Shown here in pieces: positions 1 to 7,401 of a stretch of 64,000 bases of DNA (its first letter is position 1; every line of letters begins with the position of its first letter). The translations under genes were made by a program, and so were the position numbers. This DNA comes from Bacteroidia bacterium. GTDB taxonomy: Bacteria; Bacteroidota; Bacteroidia; Bacteroidales; GWA2-32-17. Where the stretch lies: positions 129,294 to 193,293 of the forward strand of contig JACREQ010000105.1 in NCBI GenBank assembly GCA_016218155.1, read 5' to 3'. The notes beneath the pieces are model-generated. The model did no database searches. It saw nothing but the letters and a program-made list of their open reading frames with translations, and was not told the DNA's origin.

Positions 1-1259
1 ACTCCTGAAGTACTAAATGTTACTCCTGTTGGATTTTGAGCTGTAGAAGTTGCCGGAGTACCACCTGCAAATGTCCATGAATAGGTTGCTCCTGAAGATG
101 TACCAGTATTTGTAAAATTAAACGAGTTTCCACTTAAACATTGATTACTGTTATATGTAAATCCAGCTAAAGGATTAGAGAATGTTATCGTCATATTATC
201 AGTACATGTAACACTACTACTATTTGTACCTACCCATGTTAATGTATAAGTACCAGCTGCAGCAGCAGTAATTGTTGATGTAGCAGAATTTATATTACCA
301 AAAGTAATACCTGCAACAGGATTCCAATGATAAGCAGAATAACCTGCCTGACCTGCAGTTGCTGCAAGAGTTGCTGTTAATCCACAGACAGATTGATCAA
401 CTCCTGCATTTACAGAGCACGCATTACATGCTGCCGGTGCAGTGAAGTTAGAGGTCCAAGTACATGTAGGTGCAGCAGAAAATACCCCGGTTACAGAATA
501 TCCAGCACCATTAGCTGGAATACCCGCAATAGAAAAACAACTGGTTCCTACAAAAGGTGGTGTAAAAGTCTGAGTATACCCACCCGGATTAACAGTAACA
601 GTTAAATTACCTGTAGTGGGTGGATGATCTAAAGGTAAATTATTATAATCCACACATCCAGTTAAAGTAAATGTATTACCTGGAACACAAGCCCCAGGAA
701 ATGTAGTAATTCCAGTTATATTACAATAAACAACATTACAATTTGTTGAACCAGCTCCGGCACCACTGTTTGTTTGACTAAATACAACATTAGTTGTTGT
801 ATTGGCAAAGTTTGTGATAAGCATCATATAATACTGACCCGATATCGCATTAGATATATTACAATCTTCCTGTGCAGCAGTTGAATAACTACAATCAACT
901 GTATTTCCTGATGTTAAATTATTGCAAACATTTGTAAGTGAAGAAAAAGGTCCCCAACATGTAAAATCAATATCTGTACCTGCAGAAGAACTCATATGTA
1001 TATCAATATTACCAGATTGGTCAATTAATAAAAAATACCATACTGGACTTGGAGTAGTTAATAAACAAGTATAATTTGGACCGGCTTGAGCTTGTGGACC
1101 GCCTCCTGCACCAGAACCATCATAAGCTAATGGGAAATTATAAGTTGTTCCAGTACAAAATGGGTCTGCTGTAGCACAATTATTTGTATACTGTGAATGC
1201 GCAAAAAAAGTAGTTATTGATAAAAATATCAATAATAATAGCCTTTTCATAAGTTTCAT
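1..1259 (-). CDS. Secreted Cys/Gly/Thr-rich multidomain surface protein, N-terminal part (3' end lies left of the window); probable T9SS cargo/adhesin
   Basis: Absent from the ORF track because its stop is off-window. Manual reverse translation from ATG 1259 (alternative ATG 1250) gives MKLMKRLLLLIFLSITTFFAHSQYTNNCATADPFCTGTTYNFPLAYDGSGAGGGPQAQAGPNYTC..., a Sec signal peptide. I verified the frame codon by codon only for about 1081-1259; downstream to position 1 it was read by eye and looked stop-free. It lies directly downstream of the sigma/TM-protein pair. Confidence 0.6.
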   Translation of the reverse strand, partial: MKLMKRLLLLIFLSITTFFAHSQYTNNCATADPFCTGTTYNFPLAYDGSGAGGGPQAQAGPNYTCLLTTPSPVWYFLLIDQSGNIDIHMSSSAGTDIDFTCWGPFSSLTNVCNNLTSGNTVDCSYSTAAQEDCNISNAISGQYYMMLITNFANTTTNVVFSQTNSGAGAGSTNCNVVYCNITGITTFPGACVPGNTFTLTGCVDYNNLPLDHPPTTGNLTVTVNPGGYTQTFTPPFVGTSCFSIAGIPANGAGYSVTGVFSAAPTCTWTSNFTAPAACNACSVNAGVDQSVCGLTATLAATAGQAGYSAYHWNPVAGITFGNINSATSTITAAAAGTYTLTWVGTNSSSVTCTDNMTITFSNPLAGFTYNSNQCLSGNSFNFTNTGTSSGATYSWTFAGGTPATSTAQNPTGVTFSTSG

Positions 1260-1315
1260 ATTTTTTAGTAAAAATATTATAAAATCTTAATAATAAAAAT
1301 CTTTGTTAAAAACTT

Positions 1316-2548
1316 TTATTTTAACAGATTAATAATGCCATTTCTTTCGTCAACATTTCCATATTTATCTATAGATTTTAGTTTATATAGATAAACACCT
1401 ACCTCAGCCTGTTGACCATTATTTTTATTAATACCATCCCAATTTACATTATTTCCTTTAGCACTAAACACTAATTGACCTGTTTTACTAAATATCTCAA
1501 ATACAAAATAATATTCTTCAGAATTTTCTACAATTGGTCCAAATGTACTATTCTGCCCAGCTATATTTGGAGTAAAGGCATTTGGAATGTATAATGGATG
1601 GTTAATTTTAATATCAATATTTTTATTTATCGTATCCGAGCAACCTGATTTATTAGTTGCAATTAATTTAACAGAATACTTACCATTTTTAGTAAATGTT
1701 TTTTCTGTATTTTCTTCAAAAGATTCTGAATCATTAAAAACCCATTTAAAACTATTAGCGTTAACTGAAGCATTTGTAAAACTCACAACGGAATTATCTG
1801 TTTCTGTGGCAAATAATGCTGTAGGAGTATCGTTTACTTTGACCAAATACTGTCTCATGTTTGAAATAACTGCTTCGGATTTAAAATATTTAACAATTAA
1901 CAAAACAGAATAATTACCGGCTCTTTTATAGGTATGATTAGGCATTTTTTCAGTAGAAATATTACCATCTCCAAAATCCCAAGAATAAATAGTAGAATCT
2001 GAAATTTCAACAGGAACAAATTTTGTTGTAAACGGAACACAACCTTCTGTTTCTCTACAAATAAAGGTAGCATTTGGTTTTGCAGCTTTAGTCACATTAA
2101 CGGGATTAATAAAATCAGGATCTTTTGTACTATTTACATTTTCCTTTTGGTCCTCAACAACGTTTACTAAAATATCGTTATTTTTAACATTGTTATCAAT
2201 TACACTTACCACATTAGAAATTGGCGTATTTGTCTTATTTTCAACATTATTCACATTTGTTTTAATTTCATTTTCCAGTGTAAAAGAGTTTGGAATTACT
2301 GAATTTGTAATAGTATTAATTATACTACAATTACCTGATTTATCGTTTGAATTAAAATACCAAAATAAACCAACAACTGTAACAATAGCAACTGTTAACG
2401 CTGCAGCAATACCATAAAATGAGCTCTTACCAGGAATTTGTTTCTTAAACTTTTTCCAGGAAGCAGCATCATAACTATACTCGAACGACTCAAGCTTCTG
2501 CCCAACTATTCGTTCAAATTCACCCTTGTTATTCATATTCAAATTCAT
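1316..2548 (-). CDS. Membrane-anchored protein with two PKD-like domains and a T9SS type B (gliding-motility-associated) C-terminal sorting domain; candidate anti-sigma factor
   Basis: 410-aa ORF. About 45 aa precede a single TM segment (FYGIAAALTVAIVTVVGLFWYF), followed by an N-rich linker. PKD-like motifs are present (YSWDFGDGN...HTYKRAGNYSV; FKWVFNDSE...KNGKYSVKLIATNKSGC). The C-terminus YIPNAFTPN...FEIFSKTGQLVF...WDG...GVYLYKL...GIINLLK matches the type B sorting domain pattern. The 5' end overlaps the sigma gene stop by 8-20 nt. Confidence 0.85.
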   Translation of the reverse strand: MNLNMNNKGEFERIVGQKLESFEYSYDAASWKKFKKQIPGKSSFYGIAAALTVAIVTVVGLFWYFNSNDKSGNCSIINTITNSVIPNSFTLENEIKTNVNNVENKTNTPISNVVSVIDNNVKNNDILVNVVEDQKENVNSTKDPDFINPVNVTKAAKPNATFICRETEGCVPFTTKFVPVEISDSTIYSWDFGDGNISTEKMPNHTYKRAGNYSVLLIVKYFKSEAVISNMRQYLVKVNDTPTALFATETDNSVVSFTNASVNANSFKWVFNDSESFEENTEKTFTKNGKYSVKLIATNKSGCSDTINKNIDIKINHPLYIPNAFTPNIAGQNSTFGPIVENSEEYYFVFEIFSKTGQLVFSAKGNNVNWDGINKNNGQQAEVGVYLYKLKSIDKYGNVDERNGIINLLK

Positions 2549-3113
2549 TCCTATGTTGTTCTACCAATTCTTTTAATTTAATCTTAGCCTTTGCTAAGTT
2601 TGATTTTGAAGTTCCTATACTAATATTCAATGTTTCTGCAATTTCTTTATGCTGCATATTTTCAACAGCAAATAAGTTAAAAACCATTCTATATGCCGGA
2701 GAAAGTTTTTGCATTAATCCTATTAATGTTTCTGCTTTCATTCTTTGAATTTTTTCCATTTCTTCAGTCTTTTCAGAATCATCAACAATATCATCTATCA
2801 AGAACTCTTGCTCCTCTTTAATGTAAAAATCTTTTCGTGTTCTAACAGAATCAATTGCACTATTTACAATAATTCTCCTTACCCAACCTTCAAAAGAACC
2901 TTTATTTTCAAAACTCTTAAGTTTTATAAAAACTTTTATTAAACCATCATGCAAAACATCTTGTGCCTCTTCTTTATTTCTTGAATATCGCATACAAACT
3001 GCAAGCATTTTTCCATAGAACGTTTTATATAACAACTCCTGACTCTTGCGATTACCTTTAATACAGGAATCAACTAAATCTTTAACAACTTCTTTATTTG
3101 TTAAATCAATCAT
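2529..3113 (-). CDS. ECF-type RNA polymerase sigma-70 family factor
   Basis: 194 aa with region 2 (AQDVLHDGLIKVFIKL...FEGWVRRIIVNSAID) and region 4 HTH (MQHKEIAETLNISIGTSKSNLAKAKIKLKE) motifs. Confidence 0.9.
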   Translation of the reverse strand: MIDLTNKEVVKDLVDSCIKGNRKSQELLYKTFYGKMLAVCMRYSRNKEEAQDVLHDGLIKVFIKLKSFENKGSFEGWVRRIIVNSAIDSVRTRKDFYIKEEQEFLIDDIVDDSEKTEEMEKIQRMKAETLIGLMQKLSPAYRMVFNLFAVENMQHKEIAETLNISIGTSKSNLAKAKIKLKELVEQHRNEFEYE

Positions 3114-3209
3114 TTGCTGTTAAACATTAATAAGACGTTAGCTTTTTTTGTGGGTTGCCTATAATTTATCACACAATAAATCTTTTTGACGAAAAACTGT
3201 TTCTTCAAA

Positions 3210-3374
3210 TTAATCATCTGTTTCTTCAAATTCTTCAATACCTACGCTACAAACAGGACATTGCCAGTTTTTAGATAAATCTTTAAAAAGTGTTCCTTCA
3301 ATTATTCCAGAAATAGGATCACCCTCATTTTCGTCATAAATATACCCACAAACTTTGCATTTATATTTTTTCAT
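3210..3374 (-). CDS. Rubredoxin (54 aa)
   Basis: Below the ORF-track size cutoff. Codon-by-codon reverse translation gives MKKYKCKVCGYIYDENEGDPISGIIEGTLFKDLSKNWQCPVCSVGIEEFEETDD, with the two CxxC/CPxC iron-binding knuckles and the GDP and W-CP hallmarks. Confidence 0.85.
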   Translation of the reverse strand: MKKYKCKVCGYIYDENEGDPISGIIEGTLFKDLSKNWQCPVCSVGIEEFEETDD

Positions 3375-3470: not shown

Positions 3471-3506
3471 AAAAAAGGGACCTGATTTTTGGTCCCTTTT
3501 GTTTTT
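3471..3506. terminator. Bidirectional rho-independent terminator
   Basis: GGGACC (3477-3482), 8-nt loop, GGTCCC (3491-3496), flanked by an A-run on the left and a T-run on the right. Confidence 0.6.
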
Positions 3507-3684
3507 ACATTGATTGCACCATCTTAATGATGCGATTTACGAGATAATCCGGAGGTTCTACAGAAACTCTGTCAAGGATTTCATTTATACTTTCAGAATT
3601 ATCATTTATGTTAGTTACATCGTTGATTAATTTTGCTGAAGAAGTATTCTCGTAAGTAATTAATAGAGTAGAAACTTTTCCCAT
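3505..3684 (-). CDS. Hypothetical small protein (59 aa)
   Basis: ATG-to-TAA ORF MGKVSTLLITYENTSSAKLINDVTNINDNSESINEILDRVSVEPPDYLVNRIIKMVQSM. It lies downstream of the sigma gene and ends at the terminator. No recognisable motif and no TM segment. Confidence 0.3.
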   Translation of the reverse strand: MGKVSTLLITYENTSSAKLINDVTNINDNSESINEILDRVSVEPPDYLVNRIIKMVQSM

Positions 3685-3841: not shown

Positions 3842-4438
3842 TTATTCTATAACCAAATTCATTTGTTTTTCATCAATAATTCTGCGCATATTAATTAAAG
3901 CATAACGCATTCTACCTAAAGCTGTATTTATACTTACCCCTGTCTCTTCTGCAATTTCTTTAAAACTCATATCCATAAAATGTCGCATAATAACAACTTG
4001 CTTCTGAACATCAGGAAGTTCTTCAACTAATCTGCGTACGTCATGTTCTACCTCATTTTTCACAACTACTTGCTCAGAAAATGATTCGGAATACTTTCTC
4101 TGATTAAAAATATCGTATTCATAATCATCTCGTGAAACAGTTTTAAGTCTTTTATCTTTTCTCACATTATCTATAATAAGATTATGAGCAATTCTCATAA
4201 CCCAACCAAGAAAACGTCCATCATCGGTATACTTGCCTTCTCTTAAAGATTTAAAAACTTTCAAAAAAGTTTCCTGAAACAGATCTTCTGCCTGCTCCTT
4301 GTTTCTTACTATTATTAAAATGTAGGTAAAAACTTTGCGTTTATGACGCTTAATTAGCTGTTCTACAGCCTGCTGATTTCCTGCAATAAACTGATTAACA
4401 AGTTCGTTGTCAGAGATTTCTGGTAGCTTCATTTCCAC
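3842..4438 (-). CDS. RNA polymerase sigma-70 family (ECF-like) factor
   Basis: 198 aa; region 2 (AEDLFQETFLKVFKSL...FLGWVMRIAHNLIID) and region 4 (MSFKEIAEETGVSINTALGRMRYALINMR). Confidence 0.9.
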   Translation of the reverse strand: MEMKLPEISDNELVNQFIAGNQQAVEQLIKRHKRKVFTYILIIVRNKEQAEDLFQETFLKVFKSLREGKYTDDGRFLGWVMRIAHNLIIDNVRKDKRLKTVSRDDYEYDIFNQRKYSESFSEQVVVKNEVEHDVRRLVEELPDVQKQVVIMRHFMDMSFKEIAEETGVSINTALGRMRYALINMRRIIDEKQMNLVIE

Positions 4439-4605
4439 TCGAATTAATTGGTTAAGTGGTAGAAGTAAAATCTATATGCAGCCCTCCTTTAGTTTAGTTT
4501 ATAAATTACAGTCACAAATATATTAATTTTCTACGGAAATAATTTAAGAAAGATTGGTTTTTCTTAAAATTATTTAAAATTAACTTTTCATTTTTAACAA
4601 CAATT

Positions 4606-7401
4606 ATGCCTAAGAATAAAATATCTGACGAAAAGTTTATTGAAATAATAAAAGCACGTGAGCACAACTTAAAGAATATAAGCACTAACATTCCTAGAGA
4701 TAAATTTGTAGTTATTACAGGATTATCTGGTTCCGGAAAATCTTCTTTAGCTTTTGACACCTTATACGCAGAAGGGCAACGACGATATGTTGAAAGCCTT
4801 TCATCATATGCGCGACAATTTCTTGGAAAAATTTCAAAACCTGACGTAGATAATATTAATGGAATTCCTCCGGCTATTGCAATAGAGCAAAAAGTAAATA
4901 CACATAATCCACGATCTACAGTAGGAACTTCTACAGAAATATACGAATACATTAAACTTTTTTTTGCAAGAATAGGAAAAACTTACTCACCCATATCAGG
5001 AAAAATTGTAAAGAAACATGCCACTGCTGATGTTATCGATTTTCTGACTTCTCAAAAAACCGGAACTAAAGCAATGCTGTTAATTCCTTCTTTTAACAAA
5101 GCAACTTTTAAACCCAAAGAATACCTGGGCACTCTTCTTCAACAAGGATACTCGAGAGTTGAAATAAAAAACAAGATTGAAAAAATTGAAAATATAATTG
5201 ACTTAAAAGATCTTAGTTTCGAAAAATTTAAACTTGTAATTGACCGTTTTGAAATTAACAACGAAGAAGAATTAATTAATAGAATAGCTGATTCTGTTGA
5301 GACTGCCTTTTTTGAAGGCAACGGAACCTGTATAATTAAATTAGACGAAAATTCAAAAGAATATCAATTTTCAAATAAATTTGAATCGGATGGAATGCTT
5401 TTCGAAGAACCTTCTGTTCACATGTTCAGCTTTAATAGTCCCGCCGGTGCATGTCCAACTTGCGATGGGTTTGGTCAGACAATTGGGATTGATGAAGATT
5501 TGGTTATTCCTAACAAATCACTCTCAATTTATGAAGATGCTGTTTTCTGCTGGAAAGGTGAAGTAATGAGCGAATGGAAAAATAAATTAATTTATAGTGC
5601 AGATAAATTCGGATTCCCAATTCACAAACCATTTTACGAATTAACCACCGACCAACAGAAACTACTATGGGAAGGAAATAAATACTTTAATGGCATTAAT
5701 GATTTCTTTAAATTCTTAGAAGAAAATCTATATAAAATTCAATATAGGGTAATGCTTGCCAGATACAGGGGAAAAACTCTTTGTCCTGACTGCAAAGGCT
5801 CGCGCTTGAAAAAAGAAGCTTCATATGTTAAAATTAATGGAAAAGCAATTTCTGAGATATCTGTAATGACAGTTACCCAACTAAGCCAGTTTTTTCAAAA
5901 CATAAAACTTTCAGAAGAAGAAAATAAAATTGCGAGCAGATTGTTATTAGAAGTTCAATCAAGACTTAATTATTTAGAAAATGTTGGTCTTGGATATTTA
6001 ACATTAAACAGAAACTCAGCTTCCCTTTCTGGTGGAGAATCGCAAAGAATAAATCTATCAACTTCTCTTGGCAGCAGTTTAATTGGTTCTTTATATATTC
6101 TTGATGAGCCAAGTATAGGACTGCATCCCTTAGATAATTTAAAGTTGATTTCAGTTTTAAAAAATCTTAGAGATATTGGCAACACTGTTGTGGTTGTTGA
6201 ACATGATGAAGAAGTAATGAAATCTGCAGACTATATTATTGACATGGGACCAGGCGCAGGATCTCTTGGGGGTGAAATAGTTTTTGAAGGCAATTATGAA
6301 GAGTTGCTTAAAAGCAAAGAAAGCCTAACTGCAGATTATATAACAAATAGAAAAAGTATTTCTGTTCCAAGAATAAGAAAAAAATGGAATAACTTTATTG
6401 AGATAAATGGAGCACGTGAAAACAACTTGAAAAATATTAATGTAAAATTCCCATTAAATAACTTTACAGTCATTACAGGCGTAAGCGGATCAGGAAAATC
6501 AACATTAGTAAAGAAAATTCTTTTCCCAGCTCTTAAAAAATACTATGGAAACGGACTTACAGAAAAAACAGGTTCTTTTGATAGTTTAAAAGGTGATCTG
6601 AATTTAATAAAAGATATTGAACTTATTGATCAGAATCCTATCGGAAAATCATCTAGATCAAATCCTGTAACATATATCAAAGCATACGACGAAATAAGAA
6701 GTCTTTTTTCTAATCAGCAATTATCAAAATTAAACGGCTTTAAACCTTCGCATTTCTCATTTAATGTTGATGGTGGCAGATGCGACGAATGTCAAGGTGA
6801 AGGCTCAATAAAAGTAGAGATGCAGTTTATGGCAGACGTTAATCTAGTTTGCGAAAGTTGCGGAGGAAAAAGATTTAAACCAGAAATTCTGGAGGTTGAA
6901 TATAACGGGAAAAACATTCATGATATTTTAGACTTAACAGTTGATGACGCGATTGAATTCTTTAATAAAAAGAAAGGTCTTACTGAATCAAAAATATCTG
7001 AAAAACTTGAAGTTTTAAAAAATGTTGGGCTTGGATACGTTAAACTTGGACAATCATCGAGTACATTAAGTGGTGGTGAATCGCAAAGATTAAAGCTTGC
7101 AACTTTTTTAGGAAAATCAACATCTGCTCAAACCCTTTTTGTTTTTGATGAGCCAACAACAGGATTACATTTTCATGATATTAAAAAGCTGCTGGCTTCA
7201 TTTGAAACACTCATTCAACAAGGAAACAGTGTTATAGTAATTGAACATAATTTAGATGTAATTAAGTGTGCCGACTGGATTATTGACTTAGGACCGGGAG
7301 GTGGTAACAGCGGTGGTGAAATTGTATTTTGCGGAACACCTGAAGATTTGGTTAGAAACAAAAAATCGTATACCGGACAATATTTAAAAGAAAAACTTTA
7401 G
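4606..7401 (+). CDS. uvrA: Excinuclease ABC subunit A
   Basis: 931 aa with two ABC ATPase modules (GLSGSGKSSLAFDTLYAEGQRRYVESLSSYARQFLG; GVSGSGKSTL), zinc-finger Cys clusters and two LSGGE signatures. Confidence 0.97.
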   Translation: MPKNKISDEKFIEIIKAREHNLKNISTNIPRDKFVVITGLSGSGKSSLAFDTLYAEGQRRYVESLSSYARQFLGKISKPDVDNINGIPPAIAIEQKVNTHNPRSTVGTSTEIYEYIKLFFARIGKTYSPISGKIVKKHATADVIDFLTSQKTGTKAMLLIPSFNKATFKPKEYLGTLLQQGYSRVEIKNKIEKIENIIDLKDLSFEKFKLVIDRFEINNEEELINRIADSVETAFFEGNGTCIIKLDENSKEYQFSNKFESDGMLFEEPSVHMFSFNSPAGACPTCDGFGQTIGIDEDLVIPNKSLSIYEDAVFCWKGEVMSEWKNKLIYSADKFGFPIHKPFYELTTDQQKLLWEGNKYFNGINDFFKFLEENLYKIQYRVMLARYRGKTLCPDCKGSRLKKEASYVKINGKAISEISVMTVTQLSQFFQNIKLSEEENKIASRLLLEVQSRLNYLENVGLGYLTLNRNSASLSGGESQRINLSTSLGSSLIGSLYILDEPSIGLHPLDNLKLISVLKNLRDIGNTVVVVEHDEEVMKSADYIIDMGPGAGSLGGEIVFEGNYEELLKSKESLTADYITNRKSISVPRIRKKWNNFIEINGARENNLKNINVKFPLNNFTVITGVSGSGKSTLVKKILFPALKKYYGNGLTEKTGSFDSLKGDLNLIKDIELIDQNPIGKSSRSNPVTYIKAYDEIRSLFSNQQLSKLNGFKPSHFSFNVDGGRCDECQGEGSIKVEMQFMADVNLVCESCGGKRFKPEILEVEYNGKNIHDILDLTVDDAIEFFNKKKGLTESKISEKLEVLKNVGLGYVKLGQSSSTLSGGESQRLKLATFLGKSTSAQTLFVFDEPTTGLHFHDIKKLLASFETLIQQGNSVIVIEHNLDVIKCADWIIDLGPGGGNSGGEIVFCGTPEDLVRNKKSYTGQYLKEKL

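Follow-up and report, generated by a model that had tools for sequence, protein, structure and literature searches.

A putative anti-sigma factor ending in a modified type IX secretion sorting domain in an uncultured family of Bacteroidales

In FecA/FecR/FecI signalling and in the Bacteroides systems composed of a SusC-like protein, an anti-sigma factor and an extracytoplasmic function (ECF) sigma factor, an anti-sigma factor located in the inner membrane contacts an outer-membrane beta-barrel with its periplasmic end, and the sigma factor is freed by regulated proteolysis. Here we describe a locus which encodes an ECF sigma factor and a predicted anti-sigma factor (hereafter the partner) that, unlike FecR, has no FecR domain and no TonB-dependent transducer, and whose presumed contact module is a type IX secretion system (T9SS) sorting tag. 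The locus lies at the start of a stretch of 64,000 nucleotides (the window; contig JACREQ010000105.1, positions 129,294 to 193,293 of the forward strand) which belongs to a 4.78-Mb genome of a Bacteroidia bacterium (order Bacteroidales; assembly GCA_016218155.1). A full-text literature search for anti-sigma factors together with T9SS terms returned no description of a tag-bearing anti-sigma design, and T9SS is not mentioned in the papers on the Dma family of anti-sigma factors.

The Dma1/Das1 system, whose sigma factor (Das1/EcfO) belongs to the ECF21 group, is similar in architecture. Residues 1-40 of Dma1 suffice to bind its own sigma factor, and a disordered tether runs to a barrel in the outer membrane (PMC10927553). 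The partner likewise is encoded directly after its own ECF sigma gene, has a head of ~40 residues followed by one transmembrane (TM) helix and a long disordered tether, carries a C-terminal part that appears to be aimed at the outer membrane, and is restricted to Bacteroidota; in addition, a profile made from its head finds barrel-ending partners beside homologous sigma factors. It differs from Dma1 in that its C-terminus consists of two PKD domains followed by a modified T9SS tag of type B instead of an OMP_b-brl_2 barrel (no barrel match was found in the partner), and in that the candidate regulon consists of T9SS cargo and adhesins, not of NigD1 and vesiculation functions. The tag-bearing partner is probably a variant of the Dma-type anti-sigma factors in which the barrel has been swapped for a tag.

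The closest functional precedent is the PorA-PorXY-SigP pathway of Porphyromonas gingivalis, in which a T9SS C-terminal domain (CTD) acts as a periplasmic signal that feeds an ECF sigma factor for T9SS-related genes (PMC7712824, PMC12152298). The CTD of PorA binds the sensor PorY in the periplasm (PMC12152298), and an inner-membrane-tethered form of PorA still signals (PMC7712824, PMC12152298). PorA, however, occurs as free cargo, carries a type A CTD and acts via PorY (sensor kinase) and PorX (response regulator) without an anti-sigma factor, whereas here the CTD is type B-like and covalently part of the predicted anti-sigma factor. How Bacteroidota adjust the production of hundreds of T9SS cargo proteins, including adhesins of several thousand residues, to what the secretion machine can handle is known mainly from the PorXY-SigP-PorA route of one species. 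Type B tags are uncleaved, stay attached to their cargo and bind PorP/SprF-like barrels (PMC9143113); these shuttles are scarce and specific (PMC9143113, PMC12618676). The tag of the partner belongs to the same CHU_C/TIGR04131 family as those of the SprB/SprF, Fjoh_3952/3951 and PG1035/PorP pairs, with the PNGDGxND, WDG and GxYxY motifs (PMC9143113, PMC12618676), and the genome has 19 PorP/SprF genes; adhesins are encoded near the partner, and SprA is encoded as well.

We consider it somewhat better than an even bet that the sigma gene, the partner gene and the adhesin gene downstream of them form an autoregulated ECF sigma/anti-sigma operon in which the partner carries the sorting tag as its outer-membrane end and by it reports the state of T9SS or of the outer membrane. 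The sigma factor gene (positions 2529-3113, minus strand, as all features described here unless noted) encodes a protein of 194 amino acids. Its product contains sigma-2 and sigma-4 domains only (Pfam Sigma70_r2, 54.6 bits; Sigma70_r4_2, 51.7 bits; NCBIfam TIGR02937, 95.5 bits with a cut-off of 42.9), which together with its size of ~190 residues places it in the ECF group (group 4); the best specific NCBIfam models all score under their own cut-offs. The stop codon of the sigma gene (TAA, 2529-2531) lies within the partner gene, which spans 1316-2548 and encodes 410 amino acids from its first ATG at 2548. The initial annotation of the window had proposed an overlap of 8 to 20 nt depending on the ATG chosen, and the minus-strand reading agrees: the overlap is 20 nt from the first ATG and 8 nt from the second (2536, Met5), which is the start used in public gene calls. 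The 8-nt overlap, in the form ATGAATAA, is kept in most orthologues, and a similar form, ATGCATAA, is present in one distant locus.

The features of the partner support the single-pass anti-sigma topology, with a short cytoplasmic N-terminus and one TM helix, that had been proposed for it. The predicted cytoplasmic head (residues 1-43; 2420-2548) is a putative sigma-binding domain with the motif fE..i..K...FEYxY....W, of which E12, FEY and W31 are conserved among relatives that are 25-80% identical. No Pfam or NCBIfam model matches residues 1-70. An AlphaFold2 (AF2) model, built from 24 family members, places only two short helices in the head (residues 10-20 and 28-37; predicted local distance difference test, pLDDT, about 60), which does not correspond to a Class I (ZAS/RsrA-like) anti-sigma domain, a four-helix unit of about 80-90 residues that often carries a zinc motif. 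The sole hydrophobic segment near the N-terminus was located by a hydropathy scan at residues 44-67 (2348-2419); it is ~24 residues long, is preceded by KKFKKQIPGK, is oriented N-in according to the positive-inside rule, coincides with an AF2 helix at 47-66 and has a conserved position across the partner family. It is followed by an N/T/S-rich tether (residues 68-155; 2084-2347), which AF2 leaves without structure (residues 67-152, pLDDT below 30); its sequence lacks conservation, but every relative has a tether of about this length. The remainder of the protein is modelled as three confident beta domains (pLDDT above 90). The first two of these are PKD domains (residues ~156-318; 1595-2083), matched in two stretches by Pfam PKD_4 (84 bits) and PKD. 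A Foldseek search against the Protein Data Bank returned PKD1 domains (TM-score 0.87) and otherwise generic Ig/PKD folds only, with nothing specific to a sorting tag.

The segment at residues 44-67 does not behave as a signal peptide. A cleavable Sec signal peptide, as found in T9SS cargo, is not apparent, since the segment begins only at residue 44 and a conserved domain precedes it. Reading residues 1-70 as a signal peptide that is translated from an internal start can be rejected: there is no in-frame ATG, GTG or TTG from Met5 to the hydrophobic segment, the residues preceding the segment are conserved and translated, and so late a segment is unusual. Among the ~43 CHU_C-bearing open reading frames (ORFs) of the genome, only the partner and one paralogue have a late hydrophobic segment; the remaining ORFs with a recognised N-terminus have it within the first ~25 residues, or at 23-45 in a few, for which the chosen ATG may be too far upstream. 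We therefore regard it as very improbable that the partner is ordinary T9SS cargo with a long cleaved signal peptide, placed after the sigma gene for co-expression only. Its PKD and CHU_C domains are indeed like those of many cargo proteins in the genome, but distant relatives share, at the protein level, the 40 residues that precede the segment, the 24-residue segment lacks a small-x-small cleavage site, the other CHU_C cargo ORFs with a recognised start have a short segment resembling a signal peptide within their first 25 to 45 residues, and the head is homologous to those of sigma partners which are not cargo and which have a sigma gene upstream in all 30 loci inspected (see below).

The C-terminal domain of the partner (residues 319-410; 1319-1594) is best described as a modified type B T9SS sorting domain. 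CHU_C (PF13585) matches residues 321-406 with 42.8 bits, above its cut-off of 27. When 25 anti-sigma tags were aligned with 31 type B tags from cargo proteins of this genome, the former were seen to retain most of the positions conserved in cargo, namely P, F-x-P-N-G-D-G, N-D-x-F, W-D-G, G-x-Y-x-Y and the terminal G. For a genome of 4.8 Mb, the T9SS load is very large: ~46 type B tags, the 19 PorP/SprF genes already mentioned and ~30 SprB-repeat ORFs were counted, and type A tags number at least 150 that were scored and 341 as first-look candidates. In one distant locus, from a Bacteroidales metagenome-assembled genome (MAG; L049:6634-7749), a PorP/SprF-family gene with a single in-frame stop inside it is located ~300 nt downstream of a tag-bearing anti-sigma gene.

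A profile of the head and helix (69 positions) was run on 401 Bacteroidota genomes and gave matches in 93 of them. All of the 30 best-scoring loci (30/30) have a homologue of the window's sigma gene directly upstream. The partners encoded in these loci end in a type B tag (five), in a beta-barrel-like C-terminus (about 17) or are short (eight). The five tag-ending partners come from the genome studied here, from three genomes of a second family (f26) and from one genome of a third (f27). These matches show, at the level of sequence, that the head of the partner is homologous to the heads of barrel-ending, Dma-like partners. Four of five barrel-like partners from other genomes that were scanned match OMP_b-brl or OMP_b-brl_2, one of them above the cut-off, and the two barrel-type partners encoded in the genome studied here have no significant match to barrel models; because most of these matches are weak, the label 'barrel' used below rests partly on the C-terminal sequence pattern. 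In the genome studied here, the barrel-type partner of a paralogous sigma factor (C21:39944-41443) has the head motif twice in tandem before the TM helix.

A maximum-likelihood tree of 40 sigma factors (midpoint-rooted for drawing only, and with one partial row) groups eight sigma factors with PKD-tag partners, including that of the window, in one supported clade (96/89). This clade adjoins a clade of fifteen sigma factors with barrel partners, and both fall within a clade supported with 100/96. Two more tag-partnered sigma factors are found elsewhere in the tree, one of which is sister (98/95) to a barrel-partnered paralogue, so that the distribution of the tag requires at least three changes of partner type. 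This repeated exchange suggests that the tag and the barrel do the same job, namely connecting the switch to the outer membrane, and hints at the role that the outer-membrane end plays in envelope-spanning anti-sigma factors. The recently described class of such anti-sigma factors would be widened by the tag-bearing partners.

The initial annotation had raised the question whether pairs of a sigma factor and a TM-PKD-CTD protein recur in Bacteroidota, and they do. Full-length orthologues of the partner with 30-60% identity are present in all three genera of the uncultured family to which the genome belongs. The sigma gene is directly upstream of the partner gene in eight of nine orthologous loci, and the ninth locus ends before that point. 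A word-based search of 5.8 billion proteins identified many further clusters of 390-445 amino acids with the same layout and 25-33% identity, and an ECF sigma gene is immediately upstream in all four distant metagenomic loci. In a 400-genome Bacteroidota sample, full-length matches were found in the own family and in f26 (3/3 genomes); since four candidates per genome were scored in this profile search, the number of full-length members is a lower bound. With f27, in which the pair is also present, it occurs in at least two further Bacteroidota families. All full-length relatives are MAGs labelled Bacteroidetes or Bacteroidales bacterium. The genome encodes a second tag-bearing pair (C9:69824-71702), consisting of an ECF sigma factor and a 433-aa partner with PKD domains and a type B CTD; the tag of this paralogue (C9_70401) passes the cut-offs of both PF13585 and TIGR04131. 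For the partner of another paralogue (C107), neither Pfam nor NCBIfam bore out a first impression of a type A tag at its end.

A candidate for an autoregulatory ECF-type promoter is located upstream of the sigma gene (3133-3158). It consists of GCAACC (3158-3153), a 15-nt spacer and CGTCT (3137-3133), and ends 19 nt before the sigma ATG. All eight orthologous loci have GGCAACCC-N14-CGTCTTA about 20 nt before the sigma ATG, and the distant loci L046, L048, L051 and L052 have GCAACC-N14/15-CGTC(T/A) at the equivalent place. In the genome studied here, GCAACC-N15-CGTCT occurs in seven exact copies, compared to about 0.25 expected from base composition. All seven copies fall between genes, each with a co-oriented gene starting 20-131 nt downstream. 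One precedes the sigma gene and the other six precede genes of which all products have signal-peptide-like N-termini: four of the six products have a Por_Secre_tail domain, three of these four with SprB repeats and one with an M43 peptidase domain, while the remaining two are small proteins of unknown function. As SprB-repeat ORFs number about 30 among roughly 4000 genes, finding such repeats in three of six targets has a probability by chance of the order of 1e-5. In five relatives the motif was found 32 times, versus four times for a reversed control, and orthologous targets recur. These data support a link, through a conserved ECF-type promoter motif, between the sigma factor and T9SS cargo genes. 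The coupling of the sigma factor to the transcription of secreted-protein genes, as proposed earlier, thereby finds support for T9SS cargo genes elsewhere in the genome, but not for the gene at 1-1259, for which a test for a sigma-dependent promoter had been suggested: the 300 nt upstream of this gene contain no ECF motif.

Related motifs were observed elsewhere in the genome. The C9 pair has a motif of its own, GCAACGAAA...TTTGTCT, which precedes five genes with products that have signal-peptide-like N-termini (C42_4306, C49_42147, C104_17577, C112_49321 and C112_45949); four of these five look like T9SS cargo and C104_17577 was confirmed as type B. The looser pattern GCAAC[CG]-N15/16-TGTCT gave 17 matches, 16 of which are intergenic and upstream of genes, with nearly all products signal-peptide-like. 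Because of this preference, ECF-type promoters may drive a large share of the secreted-protein genes in this genome.

Several observations weigh against the proposed operon with a T9SS-linked anti-sigma factor. Some of these concern the tag. TIGR04131, the model for the type B sorting domain, scores 27.5 bits on the same residues as CHU_C, below its cut-off of 35; of the earlier description as two PKD-like domains with a clear type B CTD, the PKD and CHU_C assignments stand and 'clear' is slightly overstated. Of the 31 cargo tags, 29 have the Trp of the N-R-W-G motif; it occurs in none of the 25 anti-sigma tags, which read K-T/N-G or R-N/R-G at this site (K-T-G in the partner), and in the partner's own copy PNGDGxND is weakened to PNIAGQNS. 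All five conserved motifs in SprB's CTD are needed for secretion, in a paper whose text, as far as it bears on this point, is silent on the place of the Trp (PMC12618676). R-N-G also stands in one real cargo protein, which has a PorP gene next to it, and the Trp is thus not an absolute requirement. Unlike the SprB-type cargo, moreover, the partner has an inner-membrane anchor instead of a cleavable signal peptide, which is at odds with ordinary T9SS export, and in the window no PorP/SprF gene adjoins the partner gene.

Further points of this kind concern the head and the promoter motif. The head profile had no match in 87 genomes of one large family, and homology with the Dma1 of Bacteroides itself is consequently only presumed. 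When the sigma factor and partner residues 2-91 were folded as one chain, with only sigma homologues in the alignment, the junction became one long helix and the head (pLDDT 60-67; predicted TM-score 0.39) was not docked confidently on the sigma factor in this crude single-chain model. Since the genome contains at least 150 type A cargo genes, the enrichment of type A tails among the motif targets carries less weight. Paralogous sigma factors have similar -35 elements and different -10 elements, and owing to the similar -35 elements part of the genes with the motif may be controlled by a different sigma factor.

The same features of the tag fit an explanation in which the sigma/anti-sigma pair is genuine and the CHU_C-like domain has been co-opted as an ordinary periplasmic Ig-like sensor for a ligand or a component of the envelope unrelated to T9SS, its likeness to a tag reflecting ancestry. 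The sub-threshold TIGR04131 score, the missing Trp, the weakened PNGDGxND motif, the inner-membrane anchor without an adjacent shuttle gene and the generic Ig/PKD matches in Foldseek are all as expected from such a sensor. However, most type B-specific motifs are kept under selection among relatives which are only 25% identical, and both the candidate regulon and the operon neighbours encode T9SS cargo. The PorP/SprF gene downstream in one distant locus also speaks for a connection with T9SS, and the repeated swaps of the CTD with an outer-membrane barrel point to the outer membrane as its destination. We consider the co-opted sensor a rather doubtful explanation, and continue with the sigma/anti-sigma operon in which the tag retains a link to T9SS.

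For the binding of the sigma factor, the docking on T9SS parts, the route and protease of release and the direction of the signal, we infer the following course of events. The ~40 cytoplasmic residues of the partner would keep the sigma factor at the inner membrane, a single helix would pass through that membrane, and the ~85-residue tether together with the two PKD domains would reach across the periplasm. The place of the usual C-terminal outer-membrane beta-barrel would be taken by the modified type B sorting domain, and the most likely docking site for this domain, bound non-covalently, is a PorP/SprF-like shuttle in the outer membrane or else the translocon of T9SS. When docked in this way, the partner would report the state or the free capacity of T9SS or of the outer membrane. 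Release of the sigma factor would probably proceed by cleavage of the tether followed by intramembrane proteolysis. The freed sigma factor would then turn on the GCAACC-N15-CGTCT promoters, and thus its own operon with the adhesin of 2603 residues, the SprB-repeat cargo genes, the M43 peptidase cargo gene and the genes for two small secreted proteins. In this manner the bacterium probably links the production of surface proteins to its own secretion machine.

A possible specific form of this mechanism, which we put forward tentatively, is a checkpoint for secretion competence. T9SS or a PorP/SprF-like shuttle would grip the modified tag and pull on a chain that stays fixed in the inner membrane, and the strained or exposed tether would become a substrate for proteolysis, by which the sigma factor is freed. 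If so, synthesis of giant adhesins and other cargo would wait until the machine is able to accept it, and the tag and the outer-membrane barrel would be alternative wirings of one switch to the outer membrane. Another possibility, which we think unlikely, is that the C-terminal part is exported by T9SS and kept at the surface of the cell by a PorP-like shuttle, with the head remaining in the inner membrane, so that the protein spans the entire envelope and senses pulling force on, or surface contact of, the adhesin or gliding apparatus. The ~85 disordered residues and the two PKD domains would be long enough to cross the periplasm (~30 nm when extended, by our own estimate), Dma1 is known to span both membranes (PMC10927553), type B CTDs are retained on their cargo and fix it to PorP-like barrels (PMC9143113), and SprB-like adhesins are found both in the operon and in the candidate regulon. 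A chain that is threaded through SprA, on the other hand, would block the translocon, and the hallmark Trp has been lost. In the non-covalently docked form that we prefer, an anti-sigma factor fused to a sorting tag would provide a direct and compact link from the secretion machine to transcription, with a testable promoter and target list, and the conserved loss of a single Trp offers a handle to separate 'recognised' from 'exported' in type B signals.

The window opens with the 5' part of the gene for a 2603-aa SprB-repeat surface adhesin (1-1259), which runs off the window and of which the full ORF is present in the genome. The adhesin has SprB repeats, a signal peptide and a weak CHU_C end (25-29 bits). 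It is separated from the stop codon of the partner gene by a spacer of 56 nt (1260-1315). No terminator-like hairpin or other terminator-like site was found in this spacer, and given this and its short length the adhesin gene is probably co-transcribed with the sigma and partner genes. The large secreted protein which the initial annotation had placed downstream of the pair is thus a giant adhesin here and in distant lineages, but not throughout the family. In seven other family genomes (six of them shown whole), the gene after the anti-sigma gene encodes a secreted protein of 105-220 amino acids with the motif ...GYF.VDNFYKVHEIEK... (loci L008-L015) instead of an adhesin, whereas in the distant loci L046, L047 and L048 the next gene encodes a giant SprB/PKD adhesin that carries a type B tag, and in L051 the pair is followed by a large SprB-like ORF that is cut by the end of the locus. 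A weak homologue of the 105-220-aa protein (C101_3905, E 7e-5) is encoded elsewhere in the genome studied here, behind the same GCAACC-N15-CGTCT motif.

Upstream of the sigma gene, the window contains a rubredoxin gene (3210-3374) and a second ECF sigma gene (3842-4438, minus strand). The latter is followed, after 157 nt, by an ORF of 59 amino acids without a TM helix (3505-3684), which might encode a soluble anti-sigma factor, and by a perfect bidirectional terminator-like hairpin (3473-3500). The order of this sigma gene, the 59-aa ORF, the hairpin and the rubredoxin gene is preserved in close relatives. Further along, a minus-strand ORF of 146 amino acids (4512-4952) overlaps the start of uvrA (4606-7401, plus strand) and is probably not a gene.

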